The notes: a model not told the origin generated them from the letters alone. Counted from the stretch's first letter, positions 6,510 through 58,823 are shown. The stretch is DNA of 64,000 nt from Bacteroidota bacterium (GCA_049973045.1 JBMFJZ010000001.1:473363-537362); one strand, 5' to 3'. Program-made: numbers and translations.

Positions 6510-7757
6510 ATGAAAATACTCGTCCTTAATTCTGGAAGTTCATCCATCAAGTACCAGTTCATCGATGTTGAAACAGAGACCGTTCTCACAAAAGGGATCG
6601 TCGACAGAATTGGGATGTCCGAAGCTGTCTTGACGAACAAACGACTTGACGGAGACGAAATCAAAATCAGTGGCGACATTCTCGACCACGTTATGGCGAT
6701 CGAGTACATCCTTGCCGTTCTCCTGAGTCGAACCCATGGCGTCATTAAAGACAAATCGGAAATTGACGCTATCGGGCACCGAGTAGTGCATGGAGGTGAA
6801 ACGTTTACAGATTCGGTGCTGATCACCGATGAAGTGATCAAGGAAATACGCGAAAATATTGAATTAGCACCGCTCCATAATCCCCATAATTTGCGCGGAA
6901 TTCAAGCATGCAAGATTCACTTACCTGATACACCTCAGGTCGCCGTATTCGACACCGCATTCCACCAGAAGATGCCTCCCCGTGCCTATTTCTACGGTAT
7001 CCCCTATGTGCTCTATAAGCAGCACAAAATTCGGCGCTACGGTTTCCACGGAACTTCGCATTATTATGTTTCGAGGCGAGCGTATAAGATCCTTGGGGTC
7101 AAGAAAGACGAAATTAAGCTTATTACCGCGCACCTCGGCAACGGGTGCAGCATGGCGGCTGTAGACCGTGGCGTGTCCATCGATACAACTATGGGGTTCA
7201 CACCTCTTGAGGGTCTCCTTATGGGAACGCGTTCTGGAGACATGGACCCTTCCATTATCCTGTACATTATGGGAAAGGAAGGGCTGGCACTTTCTGAGGC
7301 GGGCACCCTGTTGAATAAACACAGTGGACTTCTGGGGATTTCCGGAATAAGCAGCGATATGAGAGAGATCATCGCCGAAATGAAGGAAGGGAACAAACGA
7401 GCTCAACTCGCATTTGATGTCTTTGCTTACAGAGTGAAAAAATACATCGGAGCTTATGCAGCCGCAATGGGAGGGTTAGACGCAATCGTCTTTACCGGTG
7501 GCATTGGAGAAAACAGCCCCGAGGTTCGTGAGGCAGCATGCGCAGATCTGCGGTTTCTCGGCATTGAAATCGATCAAAAGAAAAATTATTCGCCGGACCG
7601 AGAGAAAATTATTTCAACCGATGACTCGCCTGTCAAAGTGCTCGTGATTCCAACAAATGAAGAACTTGTCATCGCTATCGACACAGCGAAAATCGTGCGG
7701 CAAATGGTGAGTGCAAGCGCAGCCCACGCTCAGTTAGTGACCACCAAATCTCCATGA
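6510..7757 (+). CDS. ackA: Acetate kinase
   Basis: N-terminus MKILVLNSGSSSIKYQ and overall acetate/propionate kinase family sequence. Confidence 0.9.
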   Translation: MKILVLNSGSSSIKYQFIDVETETVLTKGIVDRIGMSEAVLTNKRLDGDEIKISGDILDHVMAIEYILAVLLSRTHGVIKDKSEIDAIGHRVVHGGETFTDSVLITDEVIKEIRENIELAPLHNPHNLRGIQACKIHLPDTPQVAVFDTAFHQKMPPRAYFYGIPYVLYKQHKIRRYGFHGTSHYYVSRRAYKILGVKKDEIKLITAHLGNGCSMAAVDRGVSIDTTMGFTPLEGLLMGTRSGDMDPSIILYIMGKEGLALSEAGTLLNKHSGLLGISGISSDMREIIAEMKEGNKRAQLAFDVFAYRVKKYIGAYAAAMGGLDAIVFTGGIGENSPEVREAACADLRFLGIEIDQKKNYSPDREKIISTDDSPVKVLVIPTNEELVIAIDTAKIVRQMVSASAAHAQLVTTKSP

Positions 7758-7812
7758 AGATCTCTCTTTGCTGACCGCACTCTTGTGTAATATCAGGTTT
7801 TGCCTGGTAGCA

Positions 7813-8424
7813 TTAAGATACGAGCCTGATGGAAATATTTCCCGCTGTTGCATCTATGATTGAATGATAAAAGGCATCAGCCGCTGATTTTCTAATTGAA
7901 ATTGTAAGTGTAACATCTTCCGCATAGGCAGCATCTTCAATGAGTGCATGCCACCGCTCAACGATATGCATGACCGAACCAACGCGCTCATAGGGAAAAG
8001 TTAGTACCAATCGCTCCATAAGGTACCGCTCAGCGACGCCACCGGCATCGAGCACAGCAAGTGTTGCATCCCGATACGCTCTGCTCAATCCACCGATGCC
8101 AAGTTTCGTACCGCCAAAATACCGAGTGACGACAACAGCTACATTGCTCAATCCTCTGCTTTCGATAGCCGAAAGAATCTTTTGACCTCCGGTACCGGTG
8201 GGCTCACCATCGTCGCCCGTGCGAATCTCCTTCTTTGGATACCCAACTATGTAGGCAAAGCAATTGTGCGTTGCATCACGGAATTCCCGCCGGATCTTTT
8301 CAATAAAATCCTCAGCTTCGATACGTGTTCTCACAGGAAGTGCAGATGCAATGAAACGTGATCCTTTGATTTTGAGTTCCTTCCTTGAGAATCTTGCAAT
8401 AGTAATGTAGGAATCGTTTTCCAT
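7813..8424 (-). CDS. yigZ: YigZ/IMPACT family protein (UPF0029)
   Basis: GEPxGTGG motif and 203-aa length typical of the family. Confidence 0.8.
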   Translation of the reverse strand: MENDSYITIARFSRKELKIKGSRFIASALPVRTRIEAEDFIEKIRREFRDATHNCFAYIVGYPKKEIRTGDDGEPTGTGGQKILSAIESRGLSNVAVVVTRYFGGTKLGIGGLSRAYRDATLAVLDAGGVAERYLMERLVLTFPYERVGSVMHIVERWHALIEDAAYAEDVTLTISIRKSAADAFYHSIIDATAGNISIRLVS

Positions 8425-38068: not shown

Positions 38069-38092
38069 CCTTTCAAAAGCGAATTAACCCAG

Positions 38093-38167
38093 TGGGCCGT
38101 AGTGGATTCGAACCACTGACCTCTACCGTGTCAAGGTAGCACTCTAAACCATCTGAGCTAACGGCCC
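38093..38167 (-). tRNA. tRNA-Val (anticodon GAC)
   Basis: Reverse complement folds as GGGCCGTTAGCTCAGATGGTTTAGAGTG...anticodon loop TTGACAC...GGTTCGAATCC. Confidence 0.85.
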
Positions 38168-38312
38168 ATAGAACTGAACTTGAACAATTTACTAAAACAA
38201 AACATAATTTCCCAATCCCTTCAGTCAATCCCTATAACCCGCCTATAGCAAGCTATGAGAACCTGGATCTTGCTTCATCAAATTAAATCAACGGGAATGA
38301 GGCTGATGGGTG

Positions 38313-38400
38313 TGCCGAGGGCCGGAATCGAACCGGCACTCCCCGTCTCTGGGGAAAAGGATTTTAAGTCCTTCGCGTCTACCTATTCCGCCACCCCGGC
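38313..38400 (-). tRNA. tRNA-Leu (anticodon TAA)
   Basis: Reverse complement GCCGGGGTGGCGGAATAGGTAGACGCG...anticodon loop CTTAAAA, long variable arm, GGTTCGATTCC. Confidence 0.85.
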
Positions 38401-38473
38401 GAACTCTGGTTTCTTGTTCGACTGTAAAGTGAATTGCTGTATTCAAGATATGAGCCACTTTAACTTTTCGGGT

Positions 38474-38707
38474 TCACTGCTGCGGGTGCTGCTTCTCTTC
38501 CGGAGAATGCGCTCTCCTCGATGACCGAGGCCAATACCAGCTCCACCAATATTGCTCCCGCCGTTGGCGGGAAGAAAAAATCATGGAGAGACCCCAGATA
38601 ATCAATAAACTGGGCCAGATAACGTCCCACGCACTTCCTGAGATGAATCCTAAATTCTTTAGAAGAAAAATAACACCAATGACAATCAGAATTAATGGAA
38701 AAAACAT
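38474..38707 (-). CDS. Small (77 aa) membrane protein with Trp-rich C-terminus (hypothetical; LiaF/PspC-like TM region?)
   Basis: ATG at 38707 with an AGAGGA RBS. Two predicted TM helices, then a WWSWYW basic tail. Lies inside the tRNA cluster. Confidence 0.45.
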   Translation of the reverse strand: MFFPLILIVIGVIFLLKNLGFISGSAWDVIWPSLLIIWGLSMIFSSRQRREQYWWSWYWPRSSRRAHSPEEKQHPQQ

Positions 38708-38749
38708 TTCAACAATTCCTCTTTGCACTTGCAAACAAAGTAGACCTTG

Positions 38750-38822
38750 AGGCGCCGGGCGGATTCGAACCGCCGAATCGAGGTTTTGCAGACCTCTCCC
38801 TTAGCCACTTGGGTACGGCGCC
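38750..38822 (-). tRNA. tRNA-Cys (anticodon GCA)
   Basis: Reverse complement GGCGCCGTACCCAAGTGGCTAAGGGAGAGGTCTGCAAAACCTC...GGTTCGAATCC. Confidence 0.85.
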
Positions 38823-38928
38823 GTAGAGACCTTGTGCTGAGATAGAATAGCCCCGCTCCTTAACAGCATGCCAAAGTTCGTGGATTGCGGGGCCATCCCT
38901 AAGGAGGTGCTTTCCGAAAAACGCCTTG

Positions 38929-39001
<73 letters not shown>

Positions 39002-39099: not shown

Positions 39100-40596
39100 T
39101 CATTGTGTCCCATCATGGCAATCACTGCATAAAGATGTTCTCCACGAATCTCCTATGTCAACCGGATGATTGAAGGGGACTCCTGAAAGATTTACGTCAT
39201 GAACGGGATTGTTCCCTTGCGAAAGTATAATATGACAAGTCTGACAATCATTAGAAATTATCTGACCATCATTGCTCTTATGTTTGCCGTCATGGCAACG
39301 GAAGCATCCCGGATTACTGTGATGACCTATGTTGTCCCGGTACGCACGCCAGTCAACTCGCATGGATGGGAAAAAATTTTCTCGATAAATAGACTGTAGA
39401 GAGGCAATGGCAGAATCAATAGCCAGTCTCCGAGAAATGTAAATGTCGGGGTAGTTTTGTCTATAAAAAGTTTGCACATATAAGGCGATACTGTCAAGAG
39501 CATTCTCTGCGGTCGTGTAACGAGGAATTAAGGCTTGCACAGAAACTTGCTTAATAAGCGGGAGGTCACGGCTGATGCGATTTCTGGCAATCGCTTCGTT
39601 AACAGCACCGTTGGGAGTCTTGATTATGTGGGTGGGACGATTATGGCAATCCATACAGTCCATAGTGGAGATTTTTGCTTTCTGCACCTCCTCGAGAGAA
39701 ATTGGACTATCCTCAGAAATAAAAATAATTGGCTTGCGTCCCGGATATTCGAGGCTAACCCATGGTATAATTTGCTGTGCTGAATCAGTCGCAAAGTATC
39801 GGACTACCGCATTTGACACATGCCAGTGGACACCGGGGCGGGGTTCCTCCGTTATCATCCCGCTCCCAATCTTCAACAGCATATCGATAGTCCATGGCGT
39901 ATTAGCAGTGTCTGAAAGAAAGTACTCGTGAATGATCCTCTTCTCACCGAGGAACGCCCTTGGCCAGTGGCATTCTTCACAGGTTTCACGGGCAGGGCGC
40001 AAGTTTTTAATAGGGGTTGGGATGGGGCGAGGATACTTATTGAAAACTGTAGCGTAAATCTGGTATGCGCCGGACAGCTTTGATCGGACATACCAGCTTG
40101 CCCCAGGACCCACATGGCATTCCACACATGCTACTCGAGCATGAGGGGAGTGTTGGTAAGTTGTATATTCAGGCTTCATCACTTTGTGACATGTCAGACC
40201 ACAGAACTGAACCGATTCTGTATACTCAAAAGCACGGTAACTCCCCACCGCGCTAAAAAGGAGAAGAACAAGTGTTGTAATTGAGAAAAAGAAAAACACG
40301 GAACGTTGCCTCGGATCATTGAGGTCAATCCTGGGCAGAGGAGGCTTCTCCACCCCAGCCATACGATGCCGACGACGGCGTTCGATCAATGCCCCAAGGG
40401 GAACGATAAATAAACCAAGAAGGAGAATGGCTGGAAGCAGAATGTACGTAATGAGACCGAGATAGGGCGCCGTTGCAGTGGTAACCAAATCAACGAGCAT
40501 GAGGAACACAATCATTGCAAAGCTTACAGCCGCGATGGCGCCACCAACAAGGCTAATTGGATTATATAGAATATCTGGCAACCTTTTCTTCGTCAT
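39100..40596 (-). CDS. Membrane-anchored multiheme cytochrome c (NapC/NrfH-superfamily-like, about 7 heme sites)
   Basis: Two N-terminal TM helices. Six CxxCH motifs (CVECH, CEECH, CMDCH, CFRCH, CQTCH, CSDCH) plus one CGLTCH (CX3CH). GAGGTG RBS. Confidence 0.8.
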   Translation of the reverse strand: MTKKRLPDILYNPISLVGGAIAAVSFAMIVFLMLVDLVTTATAPYLGLITYILLPAILLLGLFIVPLGALIERRRRHRMAGVEKPPLPRIDLNDPRQRSVFFFFSITTLVLLLFSAVGSYRAFEYTESVQFCGLTCHKVMKPEYTTYQHSPHARVACVECHVGPGASWYVRSKLSGAYQIYATVFNKYPRPIPTPIKNLRPARETCEECHWPRAFLGEKRIIHEYFLSDTANTPWTIDMLLKIGSGMITEEPRPGVHWHVSNAVVRYFATDSAQQIIPWVSLEYPGRKPIIFISEDSPISLEEVQKAKISTMDCMDCHNRPTHIIKTPNGAVNEAIARNRISRDLPLIKQVSVQALIPRYTTAENALDSIALYVQTFYRQNYPDIYISRRLAIDSAIASLQSIYRENFFPSMRVDWRAYRDNIGHHSNPGCFRCHDGKHKSNDGQIISNDCQTCHIILSQGNNPVHDVNLSGVPFNHPVDIGDSWRTSLCSDCHDGTQ

Positions 40597-42396: not shown

Positions 42397-42995
42397 CGCC
42401 TTCTTCTCGTGCTCTTTTCCTTGACCGCGATGGGACGATCAACGAGGAAGTGCATTTCCTTTCTTCCCCGAACGAGGTTCGACTTATCCCGGGATCTGCA
42501 AAAGCTATCAGAGAAGCACGGCAACACGGATACAAGGTTTTCATTATCACAAACCAATCAGGTATCGCCCGTGGTTATCTTACCGAAATCGATCTTCACC
42601 AGGTACATAAGCGATTGCTTCATCTCCTTGCCGAAGAAGAGGCGTTCATCGACGATATCTACTATTGCCCACATCATCCAGAAGTCGGAATTCCTCCACT
42701 GAATACGGTCTGCCCATGCCGAAAGCCCAAGCCGGGGATGCTCTTGAAAGCACAACAAGAGCATGGAGTCAACCTCTCGCAGTCATTTGTCATCGGAGAC
42801 AGGCTCATTGACGTAGAAACTGGTTACAACGGAGGTGCTCGCTCCATTCTTGTCCTGACCGGATACGGAAGGACTGAACGATCGCAACTTGAGACCTCTC
42901 CCATGGTGAAACCGGAATACATTGCGCAAAACTTACTTGATGCCGTTCATTACATTCTCTCGCTGAACCATCAAACTATTCGAGAAAACCCATGA
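42336..42995 (+). CDS. gmhB: HAD-family D,D-heptose 1,7-bisphosphate phosphatase-like (GmhB/HisB-N family)
   Basis: FLDRDGTIN motif, CxC...KPKPGML motif. GTG start that overlaps the glgA end; start uncertain. Confidence 0.65.
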   Translation: MGNIRKEIPLALQEARQEIITPSSRALFLDRDGTINEEVHFLSSPNEVRLIPGSAKAIREARQHGYKVFIITNQSGIARGYLTEIDLHQVHKRLLHLLAEEEAFIDDIYYCPHHPEVGIPPLNTVCPCRKPKPGMLLKAQQEHGVNLSQSFVIGDRLIDVETGYNGGARSILVLTGYGRTERSQLETSPMVKPEYIAQNLLDAVHYILSLNHQTIRENP

Positions 42996-44173
42996 GTAAA
43001 TTACTGAAACGGAAGCACTCATTCGCCGTCACTCTGCAAGTGAGATGGGCTTGCGTTATTCTCTTCCTCGCCTTGACTTTGTGGTCCTGTAGCCAAAAAC
43101 CAAATTCAACAGGGATTGGGATCCTACCACCAGACGATGTTATCGCACCCGATAGCACCGTTGTCACTGCCTCTGAAGCAACGACATTCCTGGATACTCT
43201 CTACACTGGGCATGCCAATGTGCTTCTTGTGGGCACTTTCCAAAATGGCGAATCTATTGGGCTCCTATCGTTTGATGGTGTCCCCGACACTCTGAAAGAC
43301 GCTTCTGTAACATCAGCTACACTGGTTCTATCTCCCCGGTATTCATTTGGGAACTCGCTCACACCATTCACGATGAACATCTATGAGATCGCGCAAGCCT
43401 GGAAAGCTGACAGCGTCACATGGGCTTCCATCACACCGGGCTTCTACCAATCGAACCCAGTTGGATCCTTCGATGGAAATGTGCCAGACACCGGCACGGT
43501 GAGCATTTCACTTGACCCCTCTCTTCTCCAGAAATGGTTTCAACGCAAAGCCGATTCACTCCCAATTTATGGTTTAGCCCTTGTCGCGCCACAAGGAAAA
43601 AACGTAGTCAAAGGCTTTGGGACATTTCAATCATCAAGCCCTCCAGCGCTTGAAGTAATTTACATAAAGGATGGAAGTCAGGATACAATCCGACTCAGCA
43701 GCGGTGCCAATGCTTACGTCGCACATCCTATCTCACCTATTTCTCCTTCAAATGAATTCGTTGTTCAAGGTGGCACTGGCTTGCGAGGATTCCTCCTTTT
43801 TGATGTTCACTCTATCCCATCTCATTCGTTCATCAATGATGCGCAACTCGTGCTCAGCCTCGATCCGAATGAAACGCAGCTTAACAGTTATTCAGTCGAC
43901 AGTGTCATTGCATATTTCGTGACTGATTCCACTAACAGGACGGTCAGCGAAGTTAGTTATCGTTTCAGCTCTCCGAGGGCCCTTACCCAAACAACCGTTG
44001 AGATTCCTATTGCACCAATTGTCCAGAGGTGGGTTTCCGGCGAGCCAAACCAAGGAATAATTCTCCGTGCTGCAGCGGAAAATTCCCGTCTTGACAGGTT
44101 CGCTTTTTACAGCGTAACAGCAGATTCCCTATTGCAGCCGCGGTTATTTATCAAATATACATCCATAAAGTGA
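42992..44173 (+). CDS. Lipoprotein with two DNRLRE-like beta-sandwich repeats (hypothetical)
   Basis: Signal peptide plus lipobox LTLWSC; internal repeat (LLSFDGVPDTL... / LLFDVHSIPSHS...). ATG overlaps the gmhB stop (ATGA). Confidence 0.6.
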   Translation: MSKLLKRKHSFAVTLQVRWACVILFLALTLWSCSQKPNSTGIGILPPDDVIAPDSTVVTASEATTFLDTLYTGHANVLLVGTFQNGESIGLLSFDGVPDTLKDASVTSATLVLSPRYSFGNSLTPFTMNIYEIAQAWKADSVTWASITPGFYQSNPVGSFDGNVPDTGTVSISLDPSLLQKWFQRKADSLPIYGLALVAPQGKNVVKGFGTFQSSSPPALEVIYIKDGSQDTIRLSSGANAYVAHPISPISPSNEFVVQGGTGLRGFLLFDVHSIPSHSFINDAQLVLSLDPNETQLNSYSVDSVIAYFVTDSTNRTVSEVSYRFSSPRALTQTTVEIPIAPIVQRWVSGEPNQGIILRAAAENSRLDRFAFYSVTADSLLQPRLFIKYTSIK

Positions 44174-44182
44174 GCAGTCGCT

Positions 44183-45424
44183 ATGATGCGTGTTCGATTG
44201 GCTTTTTTCTTCACCGCTTTCGTTCCACTTATAAGTTTTTCTACAGGTGGAGGCTCACCCTATTCACGACTTGGGTTAGGTGACCTTCGATATTTTGCTG
44301 GGACGGCAGCAATTGGAATGGCAAATACCGGCATTGCCGTTGTCCATCCTAATGAGATCAGCGCACTTAATCCTGCAGCTTGGGCTGGAATTCACAGAAC
44401 GCGCTTCGACGTTGGCTTTCTCTATGAGGGATTCCAAACAGACGATCAACAAGTGAGCGTGTTCCAGAGCTCTGGGAATTTCAGTGGTCTTCTCTTTGCC
44501 ATCCCAGTAGCTCCCAGCCAGGGATTAACTGTAGCTGGAGGATTCTTGCCTTACTCGACGATGAATTACAACATCGAGACCTCCGTCTCGCTTTTCTCCA
44601 CGCCTGCTATTTCTCACTATTATGGAGATGGCGGAATTTCTATAGCTACCATCGGTTTTTCATACGACCTCATGTCGGATTTTCATATTGGTTCGCGATT
44701 TAACTACATTTTCGGAACGCTGGGATTCAACACTTCTCTTTCGTTTCCTCAAGCTAATGAACTCTTTGGAGGAACAGCACGAAAGGAGCTCAGCACCTAT
44801 GGAGTTAACTTTACACTCGGTGCAGTTGTCGATAGCCTTGGCAAACTTCTTTCGATGAGATTACTGAGGTCCGCATCGATTGGCTTTATCATCACAACAC
44901 CGAGCAAACTCAATCTTTCGAGAGTGACATATTATACGTATGCTCAGAAAAAGGATACAAGTGCCACGTCATCGTCAAGCGTTGATCTTCCATTCTCATT
45001 GGGTATCGGCATAGCTTTGCCGATTGCTCAGCGAACACTTCTCGCAGCGGATTTCTTCACTCAACCCTGGTCGAAGTCCAAGCCCTTGAGCCCCTCATCA
45101 CCGTTTGAAAATCTCCATCGCATTGCTCTCGGAATTCAACGTTCTCCCTATATCGAACCGGGTGCAGCCTATTTTGATCGAAGTGAATTTCGTGCTGGAA
45201 TATTTTATTCAACGCTCTATGAGACTGTAAATGGGAACAGCCTTCGTGAGTACGGGCTGAGCGGAGGCATCGGCTTACCCCTTTCAAGCGGAACAATGAT
45301 GCGAATTTCTGTGGAATACGCTCGTCGGGCACCGGAAGGGGAAAATCTTATAAATGACAGAATAATCCGGCTCGGCATCATGATCAGTGCCAGCGAACGG
45401 TGGTTCGTGCGTCCCGAGGAATGA
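44183..45424 (+). CDS. FadL/OmpP1/TodX-family outer-membrane transport protein (hydrophobic compounds)
   Basis: Signal peptide; hatch-like N-terminus GGGSPYSRLGLGDLRYFAGTAAIGMANTGIAV...NPAAW (the NPA motif region of the FadL family). Confidence 0.5.
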   Translation: MMRVRLAFFFTAFVPLISFSTGGGSPYSRLGLGDLRYFAGTAAIGMANTGIAVVHPNEISALNPAAWAGIHRTRFDVGFLYEGFQTDDQQVSVFQSSGNFSGLLFAIPVAPSQGLTVAGGFLPYSTMNYNIETSVSLFSTPAISHYYGDGGISIATIGFSYDLMSDFHIGSRFNYIFGTLGFNTSLSFPQANELFGGTARKELSTYGVNFTLGAVVDSLGKLLSMRLLRSASIGFIITTPSKLNLSRVTYYTYAQKKDTSATSSSSVDLPFSLGIGIALPIAQRTLLAADFFTQPWSKSKPLSPSSPFENLHRIALGIQRSPYIEPGAAYFDRSEFRAGIFYSTLYETVNGNSLREYGLSGGIGLPLSSGTMMRISVEYARRAPEGENLINDRIIRLGIMISASERWFVRPEE

Positions 45425-49286: not shown

Positions 49287-49802
49287 TCAAACGGCAAAAC
49301 GGGGATCGTTCAAAGCTCCCCCACGGACGGTTAATACCGGACATGGGGCTTTTCGAACAACTCTCTCCGTAGTACTCCCAAAGAGGAGATGCTCAACCGC
49401 CCCATGTCCATGCGCCGCAATAACAATGAGGTCGACATTTTCTGTTTCAGCAAGATGAACAATTTCTGCTGATGGTCTGCCGGTCAGGACCAAAGTACGA
49501 ACCTTTTTGGCAGCCGCACGCTTTTTAAGATACTTTACAACAAGTTTGTCAAGTTCCTCCTGACCCCGGAGCCGCAACTCATCCTCAACATTTGGAATCC
49601 CCACCTGACCCATACTAAAATCAGCAGGATAAATCACTGGCTCAACAACATAGCAAAGAAGCACTTCAGCATTAAACAGTTCAGCAAAGCGTGCTGCATA
49701 TTGAAACGCGTATTTCGAATGTTCAGAGAAATCAATTGGAACAAGAATTTTCTTTATCCGAACAGGGGATGGCGTTTGTCTTATTCGACGAACGTTAGCC
49801 AT
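49287..49802 (-). CDS. uspA: Universal stress protein UspA family
   Basis: KILVPIDFSEHS...AHGHGAVEHLLFGSTTERVVRKAPCPVL. Confidence 0.85.
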   Translation of the reverse strand: MANVRRIRQTPSPVRIKKILVPIDFSEHSKYAFQYAARFAELFNAEVLLCYVVEPVIYPADFSMGQVGIPNVEDELRLRGQEELDKLVVKYLKKRAAAKKVRTLVLTGRPSAEIVHLAETENVDLIVIAAHGHGAVEHLLFGSTTERVVRKAPCPVLTVRGGALNDPRFAV

Positions 49803-50701
49803 TGGTAAGGGTCCTCTCCATCCCTGACGATCTCGAAGAACCGCTTCTGCAAATCAAGCGTTATCGGCCCGGGCTTTCCATCGCCGATGAGAATTCGATC
49901 AATGGAGCGAATGGGGGTAATCTCAGCAGCGGTCCCGCAGAAGAAAAGCTCATCAGCAATGTAGAGCATCTCGCGAGAGATGTCGACTTCATGTACTTCA
50001 TATCCCGCATCTTTCGCTATTCTTAGGAGCGACATTCTCGTAATCCCTGGGAGAACCGCGCGTGTAAGCGGTGGGGTAAAAAGAATTCTATCGCGCACCA
50101 TAAATATGTTCTCTCCACTCCCTTCGCTTACGTAGCCATAGGCATCAAGAGCAATTCCTTCGGCGTAGCCATCAGCAGCAGCTTCAAGTCTGATTAACTG
50201 TGAGTTAAGATAATTACCTGTCGACTTCGCATAAGTAGGAAATGTATCCGGTGCAGCACGATGCCACGAAGAAAGCCGCACGTCAATCCCATTTGCTAGA
50301 GCACCAGCACCAAGGTAGCTTCCCCATTCCCAGACAGCAATGGCAACGTCTATAGGAATGCCGGATGGATCGACGCCAACATCACCATAGCCCCGATAGA
50401 CGAGGGGACGGATATAACAAGCCTTGAGCCCATTTGCTTTGATTGTCTCAATGATTGCTTCCTTCAGTTGATCAAGCGTATACGGAATTTCCACGCGATA
50501 GATTTTGCATGAATCATGCATCCGCCTTAGATGCTCCTGAAGTCGAAAAATCGCAGTTCCCCGCTTTGTCTCATATGCACGAATCCCCTCGAACCACCCA
50601 GACCCATATTGGATAACGTGAGAAAGAATGTGAATCTTCGCATCTGCCCAATCTACCAACGCTCCATTCATCCAGATCTTTGCAACTGGTTTAATGGACA
50701 T
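49781..50701 (-). CDS. ilvE: Branched-chain amino acid aminotransferase
   Basis: Class-IV aminotransferase motifs; AGGAGG RBS. Confidence 0.9.
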   Translation of the reverse strand: MSIKPVAKIWMNGALVDWADAKIHILSHVIQYGSGWFEGIRAYETKRGTAIFRLQEHLRRMHDSCKIYRVEIPYTLDQLKEAIIETIKANGLKACYIRPLVYRGYGDVGVDPSGIPIDVAIAVWEWGSYLGAGALANGIDVRLSSWHRAAPDTFPTYAKSTGNYLNSQLIRLEAAADGYAEGIALDAYGYVSEGSGENIFMVRDRILFTPPLTRAVLPGITRMSLLRIAKDAGYEVHEVDISREMLYIADELFFCGTAAEITPIRSIDRILIGDGKPGPITLDLQKRFFEIVRDGEDPYQWLTFVE

Positions 50702-50789: not shown

Positions 50790-51914
50790 CTACGCGGGGA
50801 TTGGGATTTCGTAGAGTCGGTACTTCTTGTAAAGCTCGGCATTCAATAATTTAGCACTTCGGTTCATCATCAGATTGTCTTCTAAAACCCAGCTCGCTTC
50901 AGCATCGGCATACCCCAGCTCGATCCCCCGTCTGGCTGTCTCATAAAAAAGGACCGATGCTGCTCCTCCGCGTTGATACTCAGGGATAACTCCGAGAACG
51001 ATAATCCGCAGCCACGTGATCTCCTTCTTGTGAAGGATGAGTTTAATCATTCCGGGGATCAGCCTCCCTTTCTTATTGTACTTCAATGCCATATTTAAGT
51101 CGGGTAGTGATAGAGCAAACCCTATTGGCTTACCTTTCGACTCAGCGATGATCACAAGCTCCGGAACGACAATTTTCTTCAGATCCTCTGCAAGGTAATA
51201 AAACTCTTCGTCCGTCATTGCCACAGCGCCCCAGTTCTTTGCCCATGCCCGGTTATAAATCTCCTTGATACGGTTCACCTCATTATCAAAATCTTTCATA
51301 TTAATCGTTCGGAAACGGAGCCCCTCACGTTGCTTCACTGCTTCGGCTACACGTACAAGCTTATCAGAAATAACCCTATCCTTAGAAAGGTGGTAAGCGT
51401 AGAGGTCCTTAATTTTCCGCAAGCCGTACCCCTCAGTGAGTTCGATGTAGTATCGCGGATTGTACGGCATCATAATGACGGGAGGATACTCAAATCCTTC
51501 GATAAGAAGTCCCCAATCATCGTTCACAGAGGGATTAGCCGGTCCACGCATGGCAGTCGCACCTTTTGACTTTAGCCACTCACGCGCAGCATCAAAAAGA
51601 GAATTAGCAACGTGCTGGTCGTTTATTGACTCAAAAAATCCGTAAAAGCCTATGTTCTCGCCGTGCGTTTGGTTATGAGCATAGTTCATAATTGCCCCGA
51701 TTCTGCCGACGAGCTCACCATCACGTGAAGCAAGAAAAAGAGCAAGATCAGCATGGCGGTAAAACGGATTGTGCACAGTGTCAACGATCTTGCGGCGATC
51801 CATTAAAAGGGGTGGTACCCACATGGGCTCGTTCTCGTAGATCTTCCAGGGAAACTTTATAAAGCGCTTCAGATCACGCTTCCCTTCAACGCGGTGGATC
51901 GTTACATCACTCAT
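50790..51914 (-). CDS. GNAT-fold acyltransferase family protein (candidate bacterial ceramide synthase)
   Basis: About 375 aa with acyl-CoA N-acyltransferase-like halves. ATG at 51914 with a GAGGAGG RBS (the ORF-track start at 51959 is GTG). Located beside spt. Confidence 0.5.
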   Translation of the reverse strand: MSDVTIHRVEGKRDLKRFIKFPWKIYENEPMWVPPLLMDRRKIVDTVHNPFYRHADLALFLASRDGELVGRIGAIMNYAHNQTHGENIGFYGFFESINDQHVANSLFDAAREWLKSKGATAMRGPANPSVNDDWGLLIEGFEYPPVIMMPYNPRYYIELTEGYGLRKIKDLYAYHLSKDRVISDKLVRVAEAVKQREGLRFRTINMKDFDNEVNRIKEIYNRAWAKNWGAVAMTDEEFYYLAEDLKKIVVPELVIIAESKGKPIGFALSLPDLNMALKYNKKGRLIPGMIKLILHKKEITWLRIIVLGVIPEYQRGGAASVLFYETARRGIELGYADAEASWVLEDNLMMNRSAKLLNAELYKKYRLYEIPIPA

Positions 51915-51993
51915 GGAATATAGCCTCCTCTCTTGTTCAATGTACAAAACCTGGTTCACTTAACGCATACTTCAAAGCAACTTTCAACGAGGT

Positions 51994-52035
51994 ATAAAAT
52001 AAAAAAGCCACGGCACCATACCGTCGCCGTGGCGC
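51994..52035 (-). terminator. Rho-independent terminator downstream of spt
   Basis: Minus-strand RNA forms a GCCACGGC...GCCGUGGC hairpin (8-bp stem) followed by UUUUUUAUUUUA. Confidence 0.6.
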
Positions 52036-52068
52036 GAGAAGTCTGAAAAAAGAATGATAAGCATAGAC

Positions 52069-53310
52069 TCAGTGAATAACACCGAGTTTTCTTCCCACCT
52101 TGCTAAAGGCATCGAGAATCTGATCCAGATGTGATTCCTCGTGGGTCGCCATAAAACTGGTACGAATGAGCTGCATCCCCTGCGGTACAGCAGGGCTGAT
52201 CACCGCATTCACAAACACTCCCGCATCAAATAGTTCTTTCCAGAAGATAAACGTCTTCATGTCATCGCCAATGATCACAGGGACAATAGCCGTTTTGCCG
52301 GGGATGACATTAAAGCCGAGTGATTGCAAACCTTGCCGAATTTTCTCTGAGTTATAGTGCAAGCGTTGAATACGTTCCGGCTCCTGCTCAATAATTTCAA
52401 GTGCGGCAAGAACCGCAGCAACTGCAGCGGGCGTTGGACTTGCGCTGAAAATCAAAGCTTGAGAATGATGTTTGATATATTCAATAACTTTCCGCTCACC
52501 AGCCACAAATCCACCAAGCGAAGCAAAAGACTTGCTGAAGGTTCCCATAATGAGATCAATTTTGTCATCCAGACCGAAGTAGCTCGCTGTCCCTCTCCCC
52601 CCTTTTCCAAGCACGCCTAACCCATGGGCATCATCAACCATAATACGTGCATTGTAATGTTCGGCAATCTCTACAAGCCTGGGCAGGTTCACGATATCAC
52701 CCGACATGCTGAACACACCGTCAACAACAATTAACTTTCCAGCATGTTTCGGTGTTTTCGAGAGCAACCGCTCAAGGTCATCCATGTCATTATGCTTGAA
52801 TCGTAAAAGCTCTCCCCCGCCACCTTTGACAATGAGTGTTCCCACAACTATACTGGCGTGATTTTCTTTGTCGCTGATGACGTAGTCACCCTTCTGGACA
52901 AGTGTTGCAATTACACCTTGATTTGTTTGATACCCGGTGCTGAAGATGAGTGCAGCTTCTTTTCCAACGAATTTAGCAAGGCGTTCTTCAAGCTGAACGT
53001 GAAGGTCGAGTGTACCGTTCAAATACCGAGAACCCGAATTCCCTGACCCATATTTCATTACAGCATTCATTGCTGCTTCTTTTACTTTGGGATGCGTTGT
53101 GAGACCGAGGTAGTTGTTAGAACCTGCCATGATCACCGTTTTCCCTTCTATTGTTACGACCGGTCCATCGTTAGCCTCGATCACCTTGAAATAAGGGTAG
53201 TATCCAAGTTTCTTTACCTCCTCAGCCCGGGTAAAGTTCCTGCATTTGTCAAAAAGATCCAATGTCCCTCCAGAATCTGAATCTCTTGGTATGACTCGTT
53301 TGCCTGACAT
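52069..53310 (-). CDS. spt: Serine palmitoyltransferase (alpha-oxoamine synthase family)
   Basis: [36 protein letters not shown]...[25 protein letters not shown]...VDDAHG, GTFSKS motifs. These match the Spt pattern recalled from Sphingomonas better than the Kbl or BioF patterns. Confidence 0.7.
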
Positions 53311-53358
53311 TGCTTCTCAGGCTTTTTTTGAATATAATTCTCTACATTCTAAAAATCA

Positions 53359-54372
53359 ATGAAAGAGATGGGCCTACGAGCTACCAAGCTAAATAATCCA
53401 AAAGCGTTCGTCACAGGTGGCACGGGCTTCATTGGTAGCCACCTCATAGAAGCTCTCATTTCAAAGGGGTATGCAGTACGTTGCTTGATACGACAAACAA
53501 GCAACACTCGCTGGCTCAAGACACTGGACCTGGAGTTAGTCCACGGCTCCCTGAGTGACCCTGATTCGCTTCTCCCCTTCCTCGCCGACGTTGAATACAT
53601 CTTCCACGTTGCTGGCATAACAAAGGCAAAGAGGTCACAAGAATATTTTCAAGCGAATGCTGAATCAACAAAGAACCTCCTCACCGCAGCGGTTCACTCC
53701 GGAGCTCCATTAAAACGCTTCGTGCTTGTAAGCAGTCTCGCCGCTGTCGGGCCCAGCCTCGACGGCGCCCCAGTGGATGAGCTCACTCCGTATCATCCTA
53801 TCACGGCGTATGGCAAAAGCAAGATGGCTGCAGAGCAATACTGCCATGCAGTGCTCGACCAAATTCCAATCACAATTATACGTCCACCAGCAGTCTATGG
53901 TCCCCGAGATCGTGACATCTACGCGCTTTTCAAATTAATCTCACACAGCATTCGACCAATCATGGGATCACGAAAGGCTTCATTAATTTATGTTCGTGAC
54001 CTCGTCGAGGGAATTATAATGGCAGCTGAACATGCAGCAACTGCCGGAAAAACCTATTTCCTCGCCGATGACCAAGTATACGATTGGAACCTTCTTGGCG
54101 TACTCATTTCAAATGCACTCGGGAAGAGGACCGTTGCCGTTTGGATTCCGAAGTCAATTGCTCTTGGAGTAGGTTGCTTCGTCCAAGCTACCTCGATATT
54201 CTCTTCCAAGCCTCCCCTCTTGAGTGTCGAGAAGATACGGGATTTGATCCAACCTAACTGGACGTGCTCAGCAAGACGTGCCCATGAGGATTTTGGGTTT
54301 TCCTCGCAAACACCAATTGAGAGAGGCGTAGCAGAAACTGTCGCATGGTATAAGACTGCAGGATGGTTATGA
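53359..54372 (+). CDS. NAD-dependent epimerase/dehydratase family reductase (candidate ceramide/3-ketosphinganine reductase, CerR-like)
   Basis: VTGGTGFIGSHL Rossmann and YxxxK extended-SDR features; divergent from spt with only a 48-bp intergenic gap. Confidence 0.6.
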   Translation: MKEMGLRATKLNNPKAFVTGGTGFIGSHLIEALISKGYAVRCLIRQTSNTRWLKTLDLELVHGSLSDPDSLLPFLADVEYIFHVAGITKAKRSQEYFQANAESTKNLLTAAVHSGAPLKRFVLVSSLAAVGPSLDGAPVDELTPYHPITAYGKSKMAAEQYCHAVLDQIPITIIRPPAVYGPRDRDIYALFKLISHSIRPIMGSRKASLIYVRDLVEGIIMAAEHAATAGKTYFLADDQVYDWNLLGVLISNALGKRTVAVWIPKSIALGVGCFVQATSIFSSKPPLLSVEKIRDLIQPNWTCSARRAHEDFGFSSQTPIERGVAETVAWYKTAGWL

Positions 54373-54427: not shown

Positions 54428-55723
54428 ATGAAGTCTCGATCGATTGCTTTCCTTCTCGTATTTGCACTCGCAACTGGCAATGCTCAGAGAGTAGACTACA
54501 ACAAGTTTTTCACTGAGAAGCGCATGCGAATTGATTACTTCCATACGGGAACAAAAACGGAGGAATTTTTCAGCATTGACCAAGTCTATGAGGAACCGGT
54601 GTGGGCTGGCAGTCGAACGAATCTCATCGACACGCTCAACCTGGGCACGTACCAAGTGCGTGTCTACGATCTGGCAACAAATCAGCTTATCTATTCTCAC
54701 GGATTTTCAAGTATCTTCGGCGAATGGAGGACCACCGACGAAGCTGCCCAGAATGTCTTCCGAACGTTTTCTGAATCTGTTCTTATCCCTTACCCAAAGT
54801 ATCCAGTTCAGCTCGTCATAGCCGCACGAGATCGCTGGAATCATTTCATTGAAAAATGGAATTTTAGCATTGATCCTTCATCACGGTTCGTCAATCGGAC
54901 TCCACATGGGCAAAATATCCCGTACACGACGTGGATGAAAAACGGCGCCGAAGCAACGCACGTTGATCTCGCCGTACTTGCTGAAGGATACACAAAAGAA
55001 GAGATGAAAAAATTCCAGAGCGATGCAGATCGGCTGCTGAAAGTCCTCTTCTCCACCTCACCTTACGATACAATGAGACAGGCGTTCAACGTGTACCTCG
55101 TCGAGACTATTTCATCGCAGTCGGGCACTGATGAGCCGCGTGAAAATGTGTGGGTAAGTACAGCCCTGGAAACCACGTTCAATTTCTTTGACCTCGCTCG
55201 TTACCTTATGACAACAGATAATAAGACAATGCGGGACGATCTCGGGTCAATCCCTTATGACGCAATTATCATACTTGTGAACACCCAGAAATATGGAGGC
55301 GGAGGCATTTACAATCTTTATGCGACCTGTCCCTCCGATAACCAGTGGTCAAATTACGTCTTCGTTCATGAATTTGGCCATTCGTTTGCCGGCTTAGGAG
55401 ATGAATACTACACGTCAGAGGTCACATATAACGAGTTTTATCCTCGTGGTGTCGAGCCCTGGGAACCAAACATCACCGCACTCCTTAATCCGACGGAACT
55501 GAAGTGGAAAGACCTGGTTACCGCTGGCACCCCCATCCCAACGCCACCGGATTCAGCAAAGTATCCTTTCCCGACTGTCGGGGCGTTCGAAGGCGCTGGA
55601 TACGCAGCAAAAGGCTTATACCGCCCATCGATCGATTGCATCATGTTTTCAAAAACGTTGAACAAGTTCGACCCGGTATGCAATCGAGCAATACGGAGAG
55701 TTATCGAAAGTTATCGAAATTAA
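54428..55723 (+). CDS. Secreted peptidase M64 family (IgA-peptidase-like zinc metalloprotease)
   Basis: Signal peptide; HEFGHSF zinc-binding HExxH; M64 N-terminal domain-like sequence. Confidence 0.7.
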   Translation: MKSRSIAFLLVFALATGNAQRVDYNKFFTEKRMRIDYFHTGTKTEEFFSIDQVYEEPVWAGSRTNLIDTLNLGTYQVRVYDLATNQLIYSHGFSSIFGEWRTTDEAAQNVFRTFSESVLIPYPKYPVQLVIAARDRWNHFIEKWNFSIDPSSRFVNRTPHGQNIPYTTWMKNGAEATHVDLAVLAEGYTKEEMKKFQSDADRLLKVLFSTSPYDTMRQAFNVYLVETISSQSGTDEPRENVWVSTALETTFNFFDLARYLMTTDNKTMRDDLGSIPYDAIIILVNTQKYGGGGIYNLYATCPSDNQWSNYVFVHEFGHSFAGLGDEYYTSEVTYNEFYPRGVEPWEPNITALLNPTELKWKDLVTAGTPIPTPPDSAKYPFPTVGAFEGAGYAAKGLYRPSIDCIMFSKTLNKFDPVCNRAIRRVIESYRN

Positions 55724-55793: not shown

Positions 55794-58700
55794 ATGAAAC
55801 AATTTCTTGTTAAAGTCCTCTGTGCGTTACAGCTCGTAGGCTTTATCTTTGTAGCACTAACAGTGTTCACCTCTTTTTCTCAGCCCGAGGCTGATCCTCC
55901 TATGGCTGAGATTTCACAGGCTCTAACTGGTGACCTCCGGGGAGATCAATACTCATGGAGCTTTCTTTCCCTTTCAACGTGTGGAGTTGACCAATTTCTT
56001 GGCGAACATCCAACGTATGATGGGAGAGGCGTATTAATAATCATCCTCGATACTGGTGTCGACGTAGGCATTCCTGGGCTGATGAAAACATCCACCGGTG
56101 AGACAAAAATCATTGAAGTAAGGGATTTCTCTGGTGAGGGGGATGTTCCAGTTGAGAAAGCCATTCTGAACAAGGACAAAGGTGACAGCAGCATAAGACT
56201 CTCCGCTCCAGATAGCTCAATTAAGGTTGCGAACGTTCAGAAACTTCCGTTCAAACCGGCAAACGGTGTGTACTACATTGGAGTCTTCCGCGAAACGAAT
56301 TTTAAGAACGGGGCTGTCAACGATTTCAATGGAAACGGAACATCGGAGGATGCTTTTGCTGTCGTCGCGTTTCAGGTGGCATTGCCAAAAGTTGAAAAAG
56401 ATACCGTAAGTGATTCTATGAGGAGTGATAGTACCCAGTGGGTCGTTTACATCGACACGAACGGCAATGGCGATATTTCCGATGAGCGCCCATTGAGAGA
56501 CTACGAGCTGAACCATGATACATTCACGTTTGTCAGCAAGCCGCACAAAAAGCAAAAGGACCCTTTGACGTTAGCACTGAACTTTTATCCCCCGGAAGAT
56601 TCCGGAGATGGCAAAGTTTCAATTTTCTTCGACGATGGAGGGCATGGGACACATGTTGCTGGAATTGCAGCAGGGTACGAAATCAACGGGCAGCCAGGAT
56701 TTAACGGGGTAGCACCTGGGGCAAAGATCATTGCACTCAAAATTGGCAACAACACCTACTCAGGGGGTTCTACTCTCACAGGGAGCATGAAGCGAGCCTA
56801 CCTCTATGCCGCAACGCTCTCAAAGAAATACCACATGCCGACGGTCATCAATATGAGCTATGGCATCGGTTCCGAGATTGCTGGTCACAGCGACATTGAC
56901 GAATTCCTTGATAGCCTTCTGACAGAAAACGAAGACCTGGCGATCTGTGTTTCAGCAGGAAACAATGGCCCCGGCATTAGCTCCATCGGAACACCGGCAG
57001 CTTCCCAACTTGTCTGGACCTCGGGGGCACTATTTCCGAGAGAGACTGCGCGAGATGCCTACGGAATGGAGATGTTAGAGAACCGGATATTTTTCTTTAG
57101 CTCGCGTGGCGGGGATGTCCCAAAGCCTGACGCAGTTGCTCCTGGCGTTGCTGTCTCCACCGTGCCACATTTTGCGCATGGTGACCGAATGAACGGCACG
57201 AGCATGGCGTCTCCATACTCAGCGGGCGTCATGGCGCTCCTTCTAAGTGCTGTTAAACAACTCCACCCCGATATTACTCTCCCATTCAGACTGTTGAAGA
57301 AAGCCCTCTGGTATTCAGCAAAACCACTCCCGGGCTACTCAATGCTCGATCAAGGCCATGGGGTCCTTTCTGTCCCCGCTGCTTTTGACCTCTTGAAAAA
57401 ACTCATCGACAATAATGCTATCAAAGAAACCATTGACTACGAAGCGTTCACTGAAAGTCCAATCTTCCCTGATAATGAGGGACATACTGCATACTGGAGA
57501 AGCGTCTATTTTCCGCATGGAGAGTTAAAACAAACTTTCCACGTGAAGGGATTGTACCCTGAATGGATGAGCGAGAAAGAAAAACAGCTCTTTTTTCGGG
57601 CTTTTGCTATCAGATCAACTGCCGATTGGCTCAAGCCAATCGAGCATCTGACTTATCTTCGTGGGTCCCAGTTAGCCACAGTTACCGTCAAGTACGAGAC
57701 AGCTAAACTCGCGAAGCCCGGACTTTACACAGGTAAGATTCTTGCTTTCCGTCGTGGGGCTCCAAAGCCGATCGCTGACGTTCCTGAATTTGAACTTCTT
57801 AATACCATCGTTGTACCCTACACTTTTGGACCAAACAATGGTTATACACTCACACTCGATGATTCTCTTGCAGGAAGCGGGGCTCTGAAACGGTATTTCA
57901 TCGCTGTGCCCCCAGGAGCAACAGCAATGAATGTTTCTATAGAAGCGCTTCAGGGCAGAGAATGTCATCTCAGCGCCGCTTTCTTCTTTAACCCTGACGG
58001 AAAGAAGCGCGGTGGTACGCCACCAATTGAAACACGTGATGGAATTTTGCAGTCAAGGTCCGCCATAGGCGGACGTGGAACCGAGCTAACGCCAGGCATC
58101 TGGGAAATTGACATTCTCTCAAACCTCGTCATACCTACACCATCGCAATACAGAATAACCATAAACTTCAATGGATTTACTCTTAATCCCTCGGGGATTA
58201 CTTCCCTGAACGAAGGCGGCCATAGGCAGACGGTGCTGGTGACGAACACCTTCTCAGCCCCCTTTACTGGCTCCGGCGTTGCTTCAATCTCGTCGTTCGA
58301 AAGAGAAATTATTGACACAGTAAGGAAAGGCGACCGATTCACTTACGCGTTTAGAGGCGATTCGCTCGTGAGCTCAGTCCGGTTCAAAATTGAAATGAGC
58401 CGGGAGGACTACAACAAATTCACCGATGTGCCCGTCAACATTTACAATGAGCAAGGTAAAGGGGTGTCAAGAGAAAGTTTGGAGGAAGCTCGTGGTGAAA
58501 TCTCCTTTACTTTCTCACCCGGAGATACCACATTGTACACCCTTGAAGTAATGGGAGCTTTCACAAACTACGACAGAATGACACCCTTTGTAGTTCGTAT
58601 CATAGAAAGTCGCGTGCTGAAGGACCCCGTACCGTTCAGTGTCACCTCAGGAGGATCGCATTTGATGACATTTTATCCTGATTTTCCTGTCGTGCTTGAC

Positions 58701-58823
58701 GTCAGCGCAAAGAAGCCGCTGCCGCAGCCTCCGTTCGGTTACTATCTTGCCGGAGAAGTGAGCGTCACCGACCGGAATGGAAATGTTGGATTTGTTATAC
58801 CAATTCGATTAATGAGTAGGTGA
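55794..58823 (+). CDS. Large secreted subtilisin-like serine protease (peptidase S8) with C-terminal beta-domains
   Basis: Catalytic triad contexts ILDTGVD (Asp), HGTHVAGIAAG (His), GTSMASPYSAG (Ser); signal peptide; 1009 aa. Confidence 0.85.
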   Translation: MKQFLVKVLCALQLVGFIFVALTVFTSFSQPEADPPMAEISQALTGDLRGDQYSWSFLSLSTCGVDQFLGEHPTYDGRGVLIIILDTGVDVGIPGLMKTSTGETKIIEVRDFSGEGDVPVEKAILNKDKGDSSIRLSAPDSSIKVANVQKLPFKPANGVYYIGVFRETNFKNGAVNDFNGNGTSEDAFAVVAFQVALPKVEKDTVSDSMRSDSTQWVVYIDTNGNGDISDERPLRDYELNHDTFTFVSKPHKKQKDPLTLALNFYPPEDSGDGKVSIFFDDGGHGTHVAGIAAGYEINGQPGFNGVAPGAKIIALKIGNNTYSGGSTLTGSMKRAYLYAATLSKKYHMPTVINMSYGIGSEIAGHSDIDEFLDSLLTENEDLAICVSAGNNGPGISSIGTPAASQLVWTSGALFPRETARDAYGMEMLENRIFFFSSRGGDVPKPDAVAPGVAVSTVPHFAHGDRMNGTSMASPYSAGVMALLLSAVKQLHPDITLPFRLLKKALWYSAKPLPGYSMLDQGHGVLSVPAAFDLLKKLIDNNAIKETIDYEAFTESPIFPDNEGHTAYWRSVYFPHGELKQTFHVKGLYPEWMSEKEKQLFFRAFAIRSTADWLKPIEHLTYLRGSQLATVTVKYETAKLAKPGLYTGKILAFRRGAPKPIADVPEFELLNTIVVPYTFGPNNGYTLTLDDSLAGSGALKRYFIAVPPGATAMNVSIEALQGRECHLSAAFFFNPDGKKRGGTPPIETRDGILQSRSAIGGRGTELTPGIWEIDILSNLVIPTPSQYRITINFNGFTLNPSGITSLNEGGHRQTVLVTNTFSAPFTGSGVASISSFEREIIDTVRKGDRFTYAFRGDSLVSSVRFKIEMSREDYNKFTDVPVNIYNEQGKGVSRESLEEARGEISFTFSPGDTTLYTLEVMGAFTNYDRMTPFVVRIIESRVLKDPVPFSVTSGGSHLMTFYPDFPVVLDVSAKKPLPQPPFGYYLAGEVSVTDRNGNVGFVIPIRLMSR

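Follow-up and report, generated by a model that had tools for sequence, protein, structure and literature searches.

Three adjacent genes in an uncultured Bacteroidota genome raise the question of whether they encode a short route to ceramide. They lie at positions 50,790 to 54,372 of a 64,000-nucleotide stretch of DNA (GCA_049973045.1 JBMFJZ010000001.1:473363-537362), which was analyzed as a whole and is referred to as the window. The genes encode an alpha-oxoamine synthase (AOS), a GNAT-fold acyltransferase and an extended short-chain dehydrogenase/reductase (SDR). The original prediction, made from the sequence alone, took these to be a serine palmitoyltransferase (SPT; protein name Spt), a bacterial ceramide synthase (bCerS) and a ceramide reductase (CerR). 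The ceramide pathway of Caulobacter is said to have been described by Olea-Ozuna in 2021 and by Stankeviciute in 2022. In Caulobacter crescentus, the pathway genes are Spt (CC_1162/CCNA_01220), bCerS (CC_1154/CCNA_01212) and CerR (CC_1164/CCNA_01222). The sphingolipid cluster of E. coli BL21(DE3) consists of ECD_02850 (yghO), ECD_02851 (aasR), ECD_02852 (epi), ECD_02853 (acpR) and ECD_02854 (spt) (PMC9386255, Padilla-Gomez et al. 2022). The BL21 YghO and Epi proteins are orthologues of CC_1154 and CC_1164, respectively (PMC9386255).

The locus is very probably a compact Spt/bCerS/CerR-type locus for the biosynthesis of ceramide, the sphingolipid backbone, in a bacterium of the Ignavibacteria/Kryptoniota group (Bacteroidota in GTDB). 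The three-gene route of the original prediction is supported by homology of each of the three proteins, by conserved catalytic residues, by conserved gene linkage and by gene fusions. In this route, Spt would condense L-serine with a long-chain acyl-CoA to form 3-ketosphinganine. The tandem-GNAT enzyme of the YghO family would then N-acylate the amine from an acyl thioester to give 3-keto-dihydroceramide, and the extended SDR would reduce the 3-keto group with NAD(P)H. The likely product is dihydroceramide. The order of acylation and reduction given here is a prediction, as is any later head group.

Placement of the synthase among alpha-oxoamine synthases

In Pfam, the AOS is assigned to the generic class I/II aminotransferases (Aminotran_1_2). 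Among the NCBIfam models, the top match is NF047600 SerpalmtaseCFB, the serine palmitoyltransferase of the Cytophaga-Flavobacteria-Bacteroides (CFB) group, with 531 bits. This score is approximately 110 bits above that of any Kbl or BioF model. The lower-ranking models are TIGR01825 (420 bits), Kbl (395), BioF (391), ALAS (273) and CqsA (224). Among PDB sequences, the top match is the Sphingobacterium multivorum SPT (SmSPT) with 412 bits, followed by Thermus ThAOS (320), the Sphingomonas SPTs (285-290), Kbl (273) and two cysteate-C-fatty acyltransferases (247 and 224). The AOS is 50% identical to SmSPT and 40% identical to E. coli BL21 Spt.

In a neighbor-joining (NJ) tree that is small in references, with HemA and cysteate acyltransferase left out, the SPTs including the AOS form a clade with 94% bootstrap support, and Kbl, ThAOS and BioF branch outside it. 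The tree and the underlying alignment contain the AOS, SmSPT, the S. wittichii SPT, ThAOS, BL21 Spt, E. coli Kbl and BioF, five relatives of the AOS and two fusion proteins. This placement with the SPTs and away from Kbl and BioF agrees with the NCBIfam and PDB rankings, and it is the one expected from the original prediction.

At 19 of 21 checked positions, the AOS and SmSPT have identical residues. The AOS residues N65, G93, S94, H151, S201 and D226 correspond to N52, G80, S81, H138, S185 and D210 of SmSPT. Similarly, A228, H229, T257, S259 and K260 correspond to A212, H213, T241, S243 and K244, with K260 as the Schiff-base lysine. The roles of the residues that contact pyridoxal 5'-phosphate (PLP) and L-serine are those from the SmSPT crystal structures (PMC10196870). 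Relative to SmSPT, the AOS carries two conservative swaps (F83 to Y96 and M271 to I287). The SPAVP loop is common to both proteins.

All of the motif variants that were initially thought to set SPT apart from Kbl and BioF are present in the AOS. The SGSRxLNGT stretch is SPT-like, and the corresponding stretch of the Kbl/BioF-like Thermus ThAOS reads SGAVRTIAGT. The ASNNYLG..HP motif is also found in ThAOS and is therefore not discriminating, so this part of the motif claim falls. The AOS can be called Spt-like with good confidence on the basis of its sequence relationships. Its predicted amino-acid substrate is serine, and the chain lengths of its acyl substrates are likewise putative.

The putative acyltransferase and reductase

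The GNAT protein has a C-terminal Acetyltransf_1 match and weak, sub-threshold FemAB_like matches in Pfam. No NCBIfam model matches it, and the PDB sequence search returned no match. Its fold is a tandem GNAT, of the GNAT superfamily of acyl-CoA N-acyltransferases. It is 36% identical to E. coli BL21 YghO (ECD_02850; E 1e-75), with 374 of 374 residues aligned. BL21 YghO is in turn 44% identical to Caulobacter bCerS, CC_1154 (E 1e-107, 98% coverage; PMC9386255, Table S2). The resemblance to bCerS that had been proposed for this protein is thereby confirmed through an orthologue. Proteobacterial orthologues can be as divergent as CC_1154 and GOX2417, which share 34% identity (E 9e-62; PMC9386255, Table S2). 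The identities between the window proteins and their BL21 counterparts (40%, 36% and 32%) are within the range of the proteobacterial orthologues among themselves. The GNAT protein would N-acylate either 3-ketosphinganine or sphinganine.

Assignment of bCerS to the Pfam family FemAB_like (PF04339) was considered as well. The collinear matches to this family are weak (E 1.8e-5; 10 of 27 homologues). The assignment was dropped because E. coli YghO has no Pfam match at all, and the FemAB_like matches are probably distant tandem-GNAT similarity only.

In Pfam, the SDR matches Epimerase and 3Beta_HSD. Its Rossmann motif (GGTGFIG, residues 20-26) and its YxxxK motif (YGKSK, residues 151-155) are both intact. 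The SDR is 32% identical to BL21 ECD_02852 over 308 amino acids (aa), with an E-value of 2e-45 and 144 bits. By comparison, E. coli RfaD scores 58 bits and the best PDB entry 116 bits. ECD_02852 is 34% identical to CerR CC_1164 (E 7e-38; PMC9386255, Table S2), and by way of this orthologue membership of the SDR in the CerR family, as first proposed, is likely. The nearest NCBIfam models are HpnA, SdmB (a sterol 3-keto enzyme) and OleD (2-alkyl-3-oxoalkanoate reductases), all of which are far under their cut-offs. The ranking of these models is identical for the window SDR and for ECD_02852, and it fits a lipid 3-oxo reductase. The SDR is likely a specific CerR orthologue, as opposed to a member of a broader lipid-reductase group.

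Gene linkage in related genomes

A scan with the GNAT profile, limited to one genome per species, yielded 80 loci from metagenome-assembled genomes (MAGs) labelled Ignavibacteriota, Kryptoniota, Bacteroidota and the like. Adjacency was counted only where the flanking sequence sufficed, and these relatives are fairly close (52-66% identity). In 71 of 73 loci, the AOS gene immediately precedes the GNAT gene and is transcribed in the same direction; of the two remaining loci, one has a split match. A divergent SDR gene adjoins spt in 55 of 60 loci. The trio is more than a chance arrangement, because each gene matches its pathway enzyme and dozens of genomes share the same layout.

Two genes directly downstream of the GNAT gene are also syntenic: ilvE (58 of 80 loci) and a universal stress protein gene, usp (51 of 80 loci). 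In the Melioribacteraceae-type loci, ilvE and usp are lost and the trio is kept. In the window, ilvE, which encodes a branched-chain amino acid aminotransferase, is at 49781-50701 (-) and usp is at 49287-49802 (-). One possible role of the ilvE product is to provide branched primers for iso-branched sphingoid bases; alternatively, ilvE may be adjacent simply through inherited gene order. All-against-all clustering of the open reading frames (ORFs) in the 80 loci reveals no further conserved lipid gene near the trio (head-group transferase, kinase or acyl carrier protein (ACP)).

Eleven proteins of the E. coli BL21 sphingolipid cluster were compared with the entire 64-kb window by tblastn (E<=1e-3). 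The spt gene, the bcerS-like gene and the SDR gene are the only genes matched; there is no match to AcpR, AasR or the LptF/G paralogues. The original prediction had likewise seen no ACP or acyl-ACP synthetase gene in the window, and the AcpR and AasR searches agree. AcpR and AasR are not among the conserved neighbors in the 80 loci either. The locus is therefore not of the Rhodobacterial five-gene subtype. There is an acyl-CoA-using SPT subgroup of Bacteroidetes and delta-proteobacteria that lacks acpR and aasR (PMC9386255), and the window matches this subgroup in lacking both genes.

Fusion proteins in distant lineages

Because the relatives with the locus are fairly close, the search was widened to distant lineages. 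A full HMMER search with the GNAT profile against 1.8 billion representatives returned 2460 clusters at E<=1e-30. Among these are Spt-bCerS fusions from metagenomes, with the AOS at the N-terminus and the GNAT protein at the C-terminus. The fusions P0178 (780 aa), P0225 (777 aa) and P0218 are on independent contigs, and P0178 itself is present on three independent contigs. The AOS halves of the fusions again have the CFB SPT as their top model.

On the 819-kb contig that carries P0178 (L084), a gene for an extended SDR (7003-8013) overlaps the start of the fusion gene. This SDR shares 30% identity with the window SDR in a full-length alignment (E 1e-37) and 30% with ECD_02852. A distant lineage thus links the same three activities through another architecture, which is strong evidence that the three proteins act together. 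No mention of Spt-bCerS fusions was found in the sphingolipid literature examined, including PMC11334938.

Genes for candidate head-group enzymes follow two of the fusion genes. A PAP2-family gene (L084:10356-11258) follows P0178, and a GT4 glycosyltransferase gene (L086:3578-4615) follows the fusion gene on L086. A different fusion, P0235 (L085:8001-10823), is a 940-aa protein made up of a bCerS-like GNAT protein and a fatty acyl-AMP ligase, and its gene is beside that of a glycosyltransferase resembling monogalactosyldiacylglycerol (MGDG) synthase. No AOS is visible on this contig. The P0235 architecture suggests that in some lineages a dedicated enzyme may activate the acyl donor for the GNAT family.

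Order of the pathway and choice of substrate

A eukaryote-like order, in which the SDR reduces 3-ketosphinganine first and the GNAT protein then N-acylates sphinganine, is the alternative that survives best, and we regard it as unlikely though well worth keeping in view. Reduction first was reportedly proposed for Caulobacter by Olea-Ozuna et al. Both orders are debated (PMC11324152; PMC11087976). In B. thetaiotaomicron, the main intermediate is sphinganine and there is a separate 3-ketodihydrosphingosine reductase (3-KDSR), BT_0972. Because the window SDR has no recognizable signal sequence, it could encounter the product of Spt, soluble or membrane-bound, in the cytoplasm. In B. fragilis, however, a cerS knockout accumulates 3-ketodihydrosphingosine (3-KDS) and a cerR knockout accumulates keto-dihydroceramide (preprint 10.1101/2023.05.23.541633). 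The Spt-bCerS fusions set the acyltransferase, not the reductase, beside the Spt active site, and Caulobacter CerR is periplasmic (PMC11087976). Acylation followed by reduction is favored because of the B. fragilis knockout intermediates and because the fusions place bCerS beside the Spt product.

The recurrent fusions, together with the tight clustering of the SDR, spt and bcerS genes in this branch of the Bacteroidota, suggest a further step. Tentatively, 3-ketosphinganine may be passed directly from Spt to bCerS, acylation first may be the general and ancestral bacterial order, and a lineage with a cytoplasmic-looking CerR and no ACP may represent a minimal three-gene version. We hold this combined proposal with somewhat less than even confidence. 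A weaker addition to it is that the conserved neighbor ilvE provides the branched-chain primers for iso-branched sphingoid bases.

Less probable still, and improbable overall, is that the AOS is no true SPT and uses a different amino acid. Its product would then lead to a 1-deoxy(dihydro)ceramide from alanine, to a glycine-derived base or to a capnine-type sulfonolipid from cysteate. In favor of this reading, anoxic waters are rich in 1-deoxyceramides and sulfono-1-deoxyceramides, which are partly attributed to Bacteroidota (PMC11334938), SPTs take alanine and glycine at low efficiency (PMC10196870), and the AOS is under the SPT equivalog cut-off. These points are countered by the residues that contact the carboxylate and hydroxyl groups of serine in SmSPT (N52, G80, S81, H138 and S243), all of which are kept; the main-chain position M271 is an isoleucine. 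The solved cysteate-C-fatty acyltransferases are also much more distant from the AOS than SmSPT is (247 and 224 bits versus 412), and a cysteate synthase gene was not seen among the conserved neighbors in the 80 loci.

A chance grouping of a Kbl/BioF-type housekeeping synthase, a sugar-nucleotide epimerase and a generic acetyltransferase would fit the generic Pfam families, the lack of an NCBIfam model for the GNAT protein, the sub-threshold SDR matches and the synteny of ilvE and usp in many loci, which means that part of the conservation reflects close relatedness, but it is effectively refuted by the specific, full-length match of each protein to its counterpart in the BL21 sphingolipid cluster, by the position of the AOS in the SPT clade with no tdh or bio genes adjoining it in the window, by Spt-GNAT fusions in a distant lineage, one of them with an adjoining SDR, and by the persistence of the trio where ilvE and usp are lost.

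Several observations count against a ceramide locus of the Spt/bCerS/CerR type and lower the confidence placed in it. The AOS score of 531 bits is below the NF047600 equivalog cut-off of 640, and the AOS is also under the cut-offs of NF047599 and NF047603; it is filed as Spt-like for this reason. The homology to the validated proteins CCNA_01212 and CCNA_01222 and BF9343_4218 and BF9343_4240 is transitive: it passes through the E. coli BL21 orthologues, for which activity is itself presumed (PMC9386255). With 2460 clusters recovered, the YghO-like family is very large and need not be monofunctional. The HpnA model matches the SDR over its full length with 165 bits (cut-off 368).

The N-terminus of the SDR has no hydrophobic or Tat-like signal sequence, and Caulobacter CerR is periplasmic (PMC11087976). 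E. coli ECD_02852 likewise begins directly with the Rossmann motif. The window reductase may be cytoplasmic, judging by its N-terminus. In five relatives that form one Kryptoniota-type subgroup (L003, L010, L012, L017 and L038), the SDR gene is not at the locus, and in these genomes the reductase must be elsewhere or replaced. This subgroup retains spt-bcerS-ilvE, and the upstream genes in L003 encode IspG, a HIT protein, a CPBP protease and a DUF488 protein. In the genome analyzed here, a terminator stands between spt and the GNAT gene. The gap between these genes is only approximately 10 nucleotides (nt) in many relatives, which makes the terminator specific to this genome and no conserved feature of the locus. 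A literature search on sphingolipids in Ignavibacteria returned nothing relevant, and lipid data for the lineage were not found.

Layout of the locus and its surroundings

The ORFs for the 413-aa AOS, for the SDR divergent from it and for the GNAT protein past a terminator are all where the original prediction had placed them (Table 1).

Table 1. Positions of the genes and elements of the locus in the window, and of the fusion genes on metagenomic contigs.
Feature	Position	Strand	Length	Description or basis
spt	52069..53310	-	413 aa	PLP-dependent alpha-oxoamine synthase (AOS), serine palmitoyltransferase-like
cerR-like	53359..54372	+	337 aa	extended SDR, NAD-dependent epimerase/dehydratase / 3-beta-HSD family
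bcerS-like	50790..51914	-	374 aa	YghO/CC_1154-family tandem-GNAT N-acyltransferase
Intrinsic-terminator-like hairpin and U-tract, between spt and bcerS-like gene	51997..52033	-		sequence and fold
Divergent intergenic region between spt and SDR start codons	53311..53358		48 bp	read from sequence
P0178 fusion	L084:8001-10343			
P0225 and P0275 fusion	L086:1024-3357			

The full extent of the GNAT ORF is 50790..51959 (-), up to a GTG at 51959. Translation almost certainly begins at the ATG at 51914, which gives a protein of 374 aa: this codon is preceded by an AGGAGG at a distance of 8-13 nt, homologues are approximately 372 aa long and gene callers give 374 aa. A GC-rich hairpin (GCCACGGC..GCCGUGGC) followed by U6AU4 separates the AOS stop codon from the GNAT start codon. 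The terminator-like element as a whole consists of GCCACGGCGACGGUAUGGUGCCGUGGC and then UUUUUUAUUUU. The 79-nt spt-GNAT intergenic region that contains the hairpin folds with a minimum free energy (MFE) of -20 kcal/mol (z = -2.8).

In the relatives, the divergent gap between spt and the SDR gene has a median of approximately 63 bp and a range of 12-282 bp, compared with 48 bp in the window. An Rfam scan of the window finds tRNAs only, with no riboswitch near the spt/bcerS/SDR locus.

Beyond the SDR gene, on the same strand, are genes for an M64 (IgA-peptidase-like) metallopeptidase (54428-55723, +) and a 1009-aa S8 subtilase (55794-58823, +). Neither is conserved beside the trio in the 80 loci. 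By Pfam, the other neighbors in the window, such as the M64 and S8 peptidases, a glycogen synthase, a HAD protein and cytochromes, have no link to sphingolipids and are not conserved. No Pfam family matches, at E<=1e-5, either of two adjoining ORFs, one of 393 aa (42992-44173, +) and one of 413 aa (44183-45424, +). Four tRNA genes (Val, Leu, Cys and Gly; 38092-39001, -) lie by the gene for a 498-aa multihaem NapC/NirT-type cytochrome c (39100-40596, -).

Significance

The pathway and its wide predicted distribution have already been published (PMC11334938, PMC11087976). The new elements are a lineage with a contiguous three-gene version and the Spt-bCerS fusions, and the finding is modestly new. 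It reveals no new enzyme family or mechanism. It adds uncultured Ignavibacteria/Kryptoniota-type bacteria to the predicted sphingolipid producers. Such bacteria are frequent inhabitants of sediments, soils, hot springs and bioreactors, and their inclusion helps to assign environmental ceramides to sources. Unlike in cultured Bacteroidota, the trio is kept together, without an ACP or acyl-ACP synthetase, and its compactness would suit it to reconstitution in a heterologous host. The Spt-bCerS fusions add an independent line of genomic evidence to the dispute over pathway order in bacteria.

Comparison with known systems

As in Caulobacter and E. coli BL21, a single locus of the window encodes members of all three enzyme families, with 40%, 36% and 32% identity to BL21 Spt, YghO and Epi, respectively. 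Unlike those clusters, the window has no AcpR, AasR or LptF/G paralogues, and its Spt is of the CFB-type subgroup and not of the alpha/beta-proteobacterial one. The gene order also differs, with a divergent SDR gene followed by spt and bcerS on one strand. A further difference from Caulobacter, where CerR is periplasmic, is the absence of an evident signal sequence in the window SDR. Flanking the BL21(DE3) cluster (L081:9920-15646, NC_012971.2) are a second copy each of lptF and lptG and other envelope genes. These copies parallel the Caulobacter LptF2/G2 proteins proposed for sphingolipid transport and have no counterpart in the window.

Spt-like proteins are predicted in about 40 phyla, often with bCerS and CerR nearby (PMC11334938). 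The locus resembles the Spt-like clade B loci of Black Sea MAGs (Ding et al. 2024, PMC11334938): the Spt-like protein falls beyond the known SPT diversity or on its margin, and genes for bCerS and CerR homologues are close by. It differs in that the main text of that study makes no mention of Ignavibacteria, Kryptoniota or Spt-bCerS fusions.

The sulfonolipid (capnine) pathway, also present in Bacteroidota, has comparable steps: an AOS (cysteate-C-fatty acyltransferase), ketone reduction (dehydrocapnine reductase) and N-acylation. The window AOS is nevertheless far closer to SPT (412 bits) than to the cysteate acyltransferases (247 and 224 bits).

The systems of Bacteroides, Porphyromonas and Sphingobacterium (SPT BT_0870; SmSPT, PDB 3A2B/8GUH; B. 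fragilis CerS BF9343_4218 and CerR BF9343_4240) include the closest characterized Spt, which is SmSPT. The two synthases have the same active-site residues, the predicted use of acyl-CoA without AcpR is common to both, and their hosts belong to the same phylum in the GTDB sense. Cultured Bacteroidota reportedly carry the three genes at separate sites (PMC11334938), whereas in the window they are contiguous.

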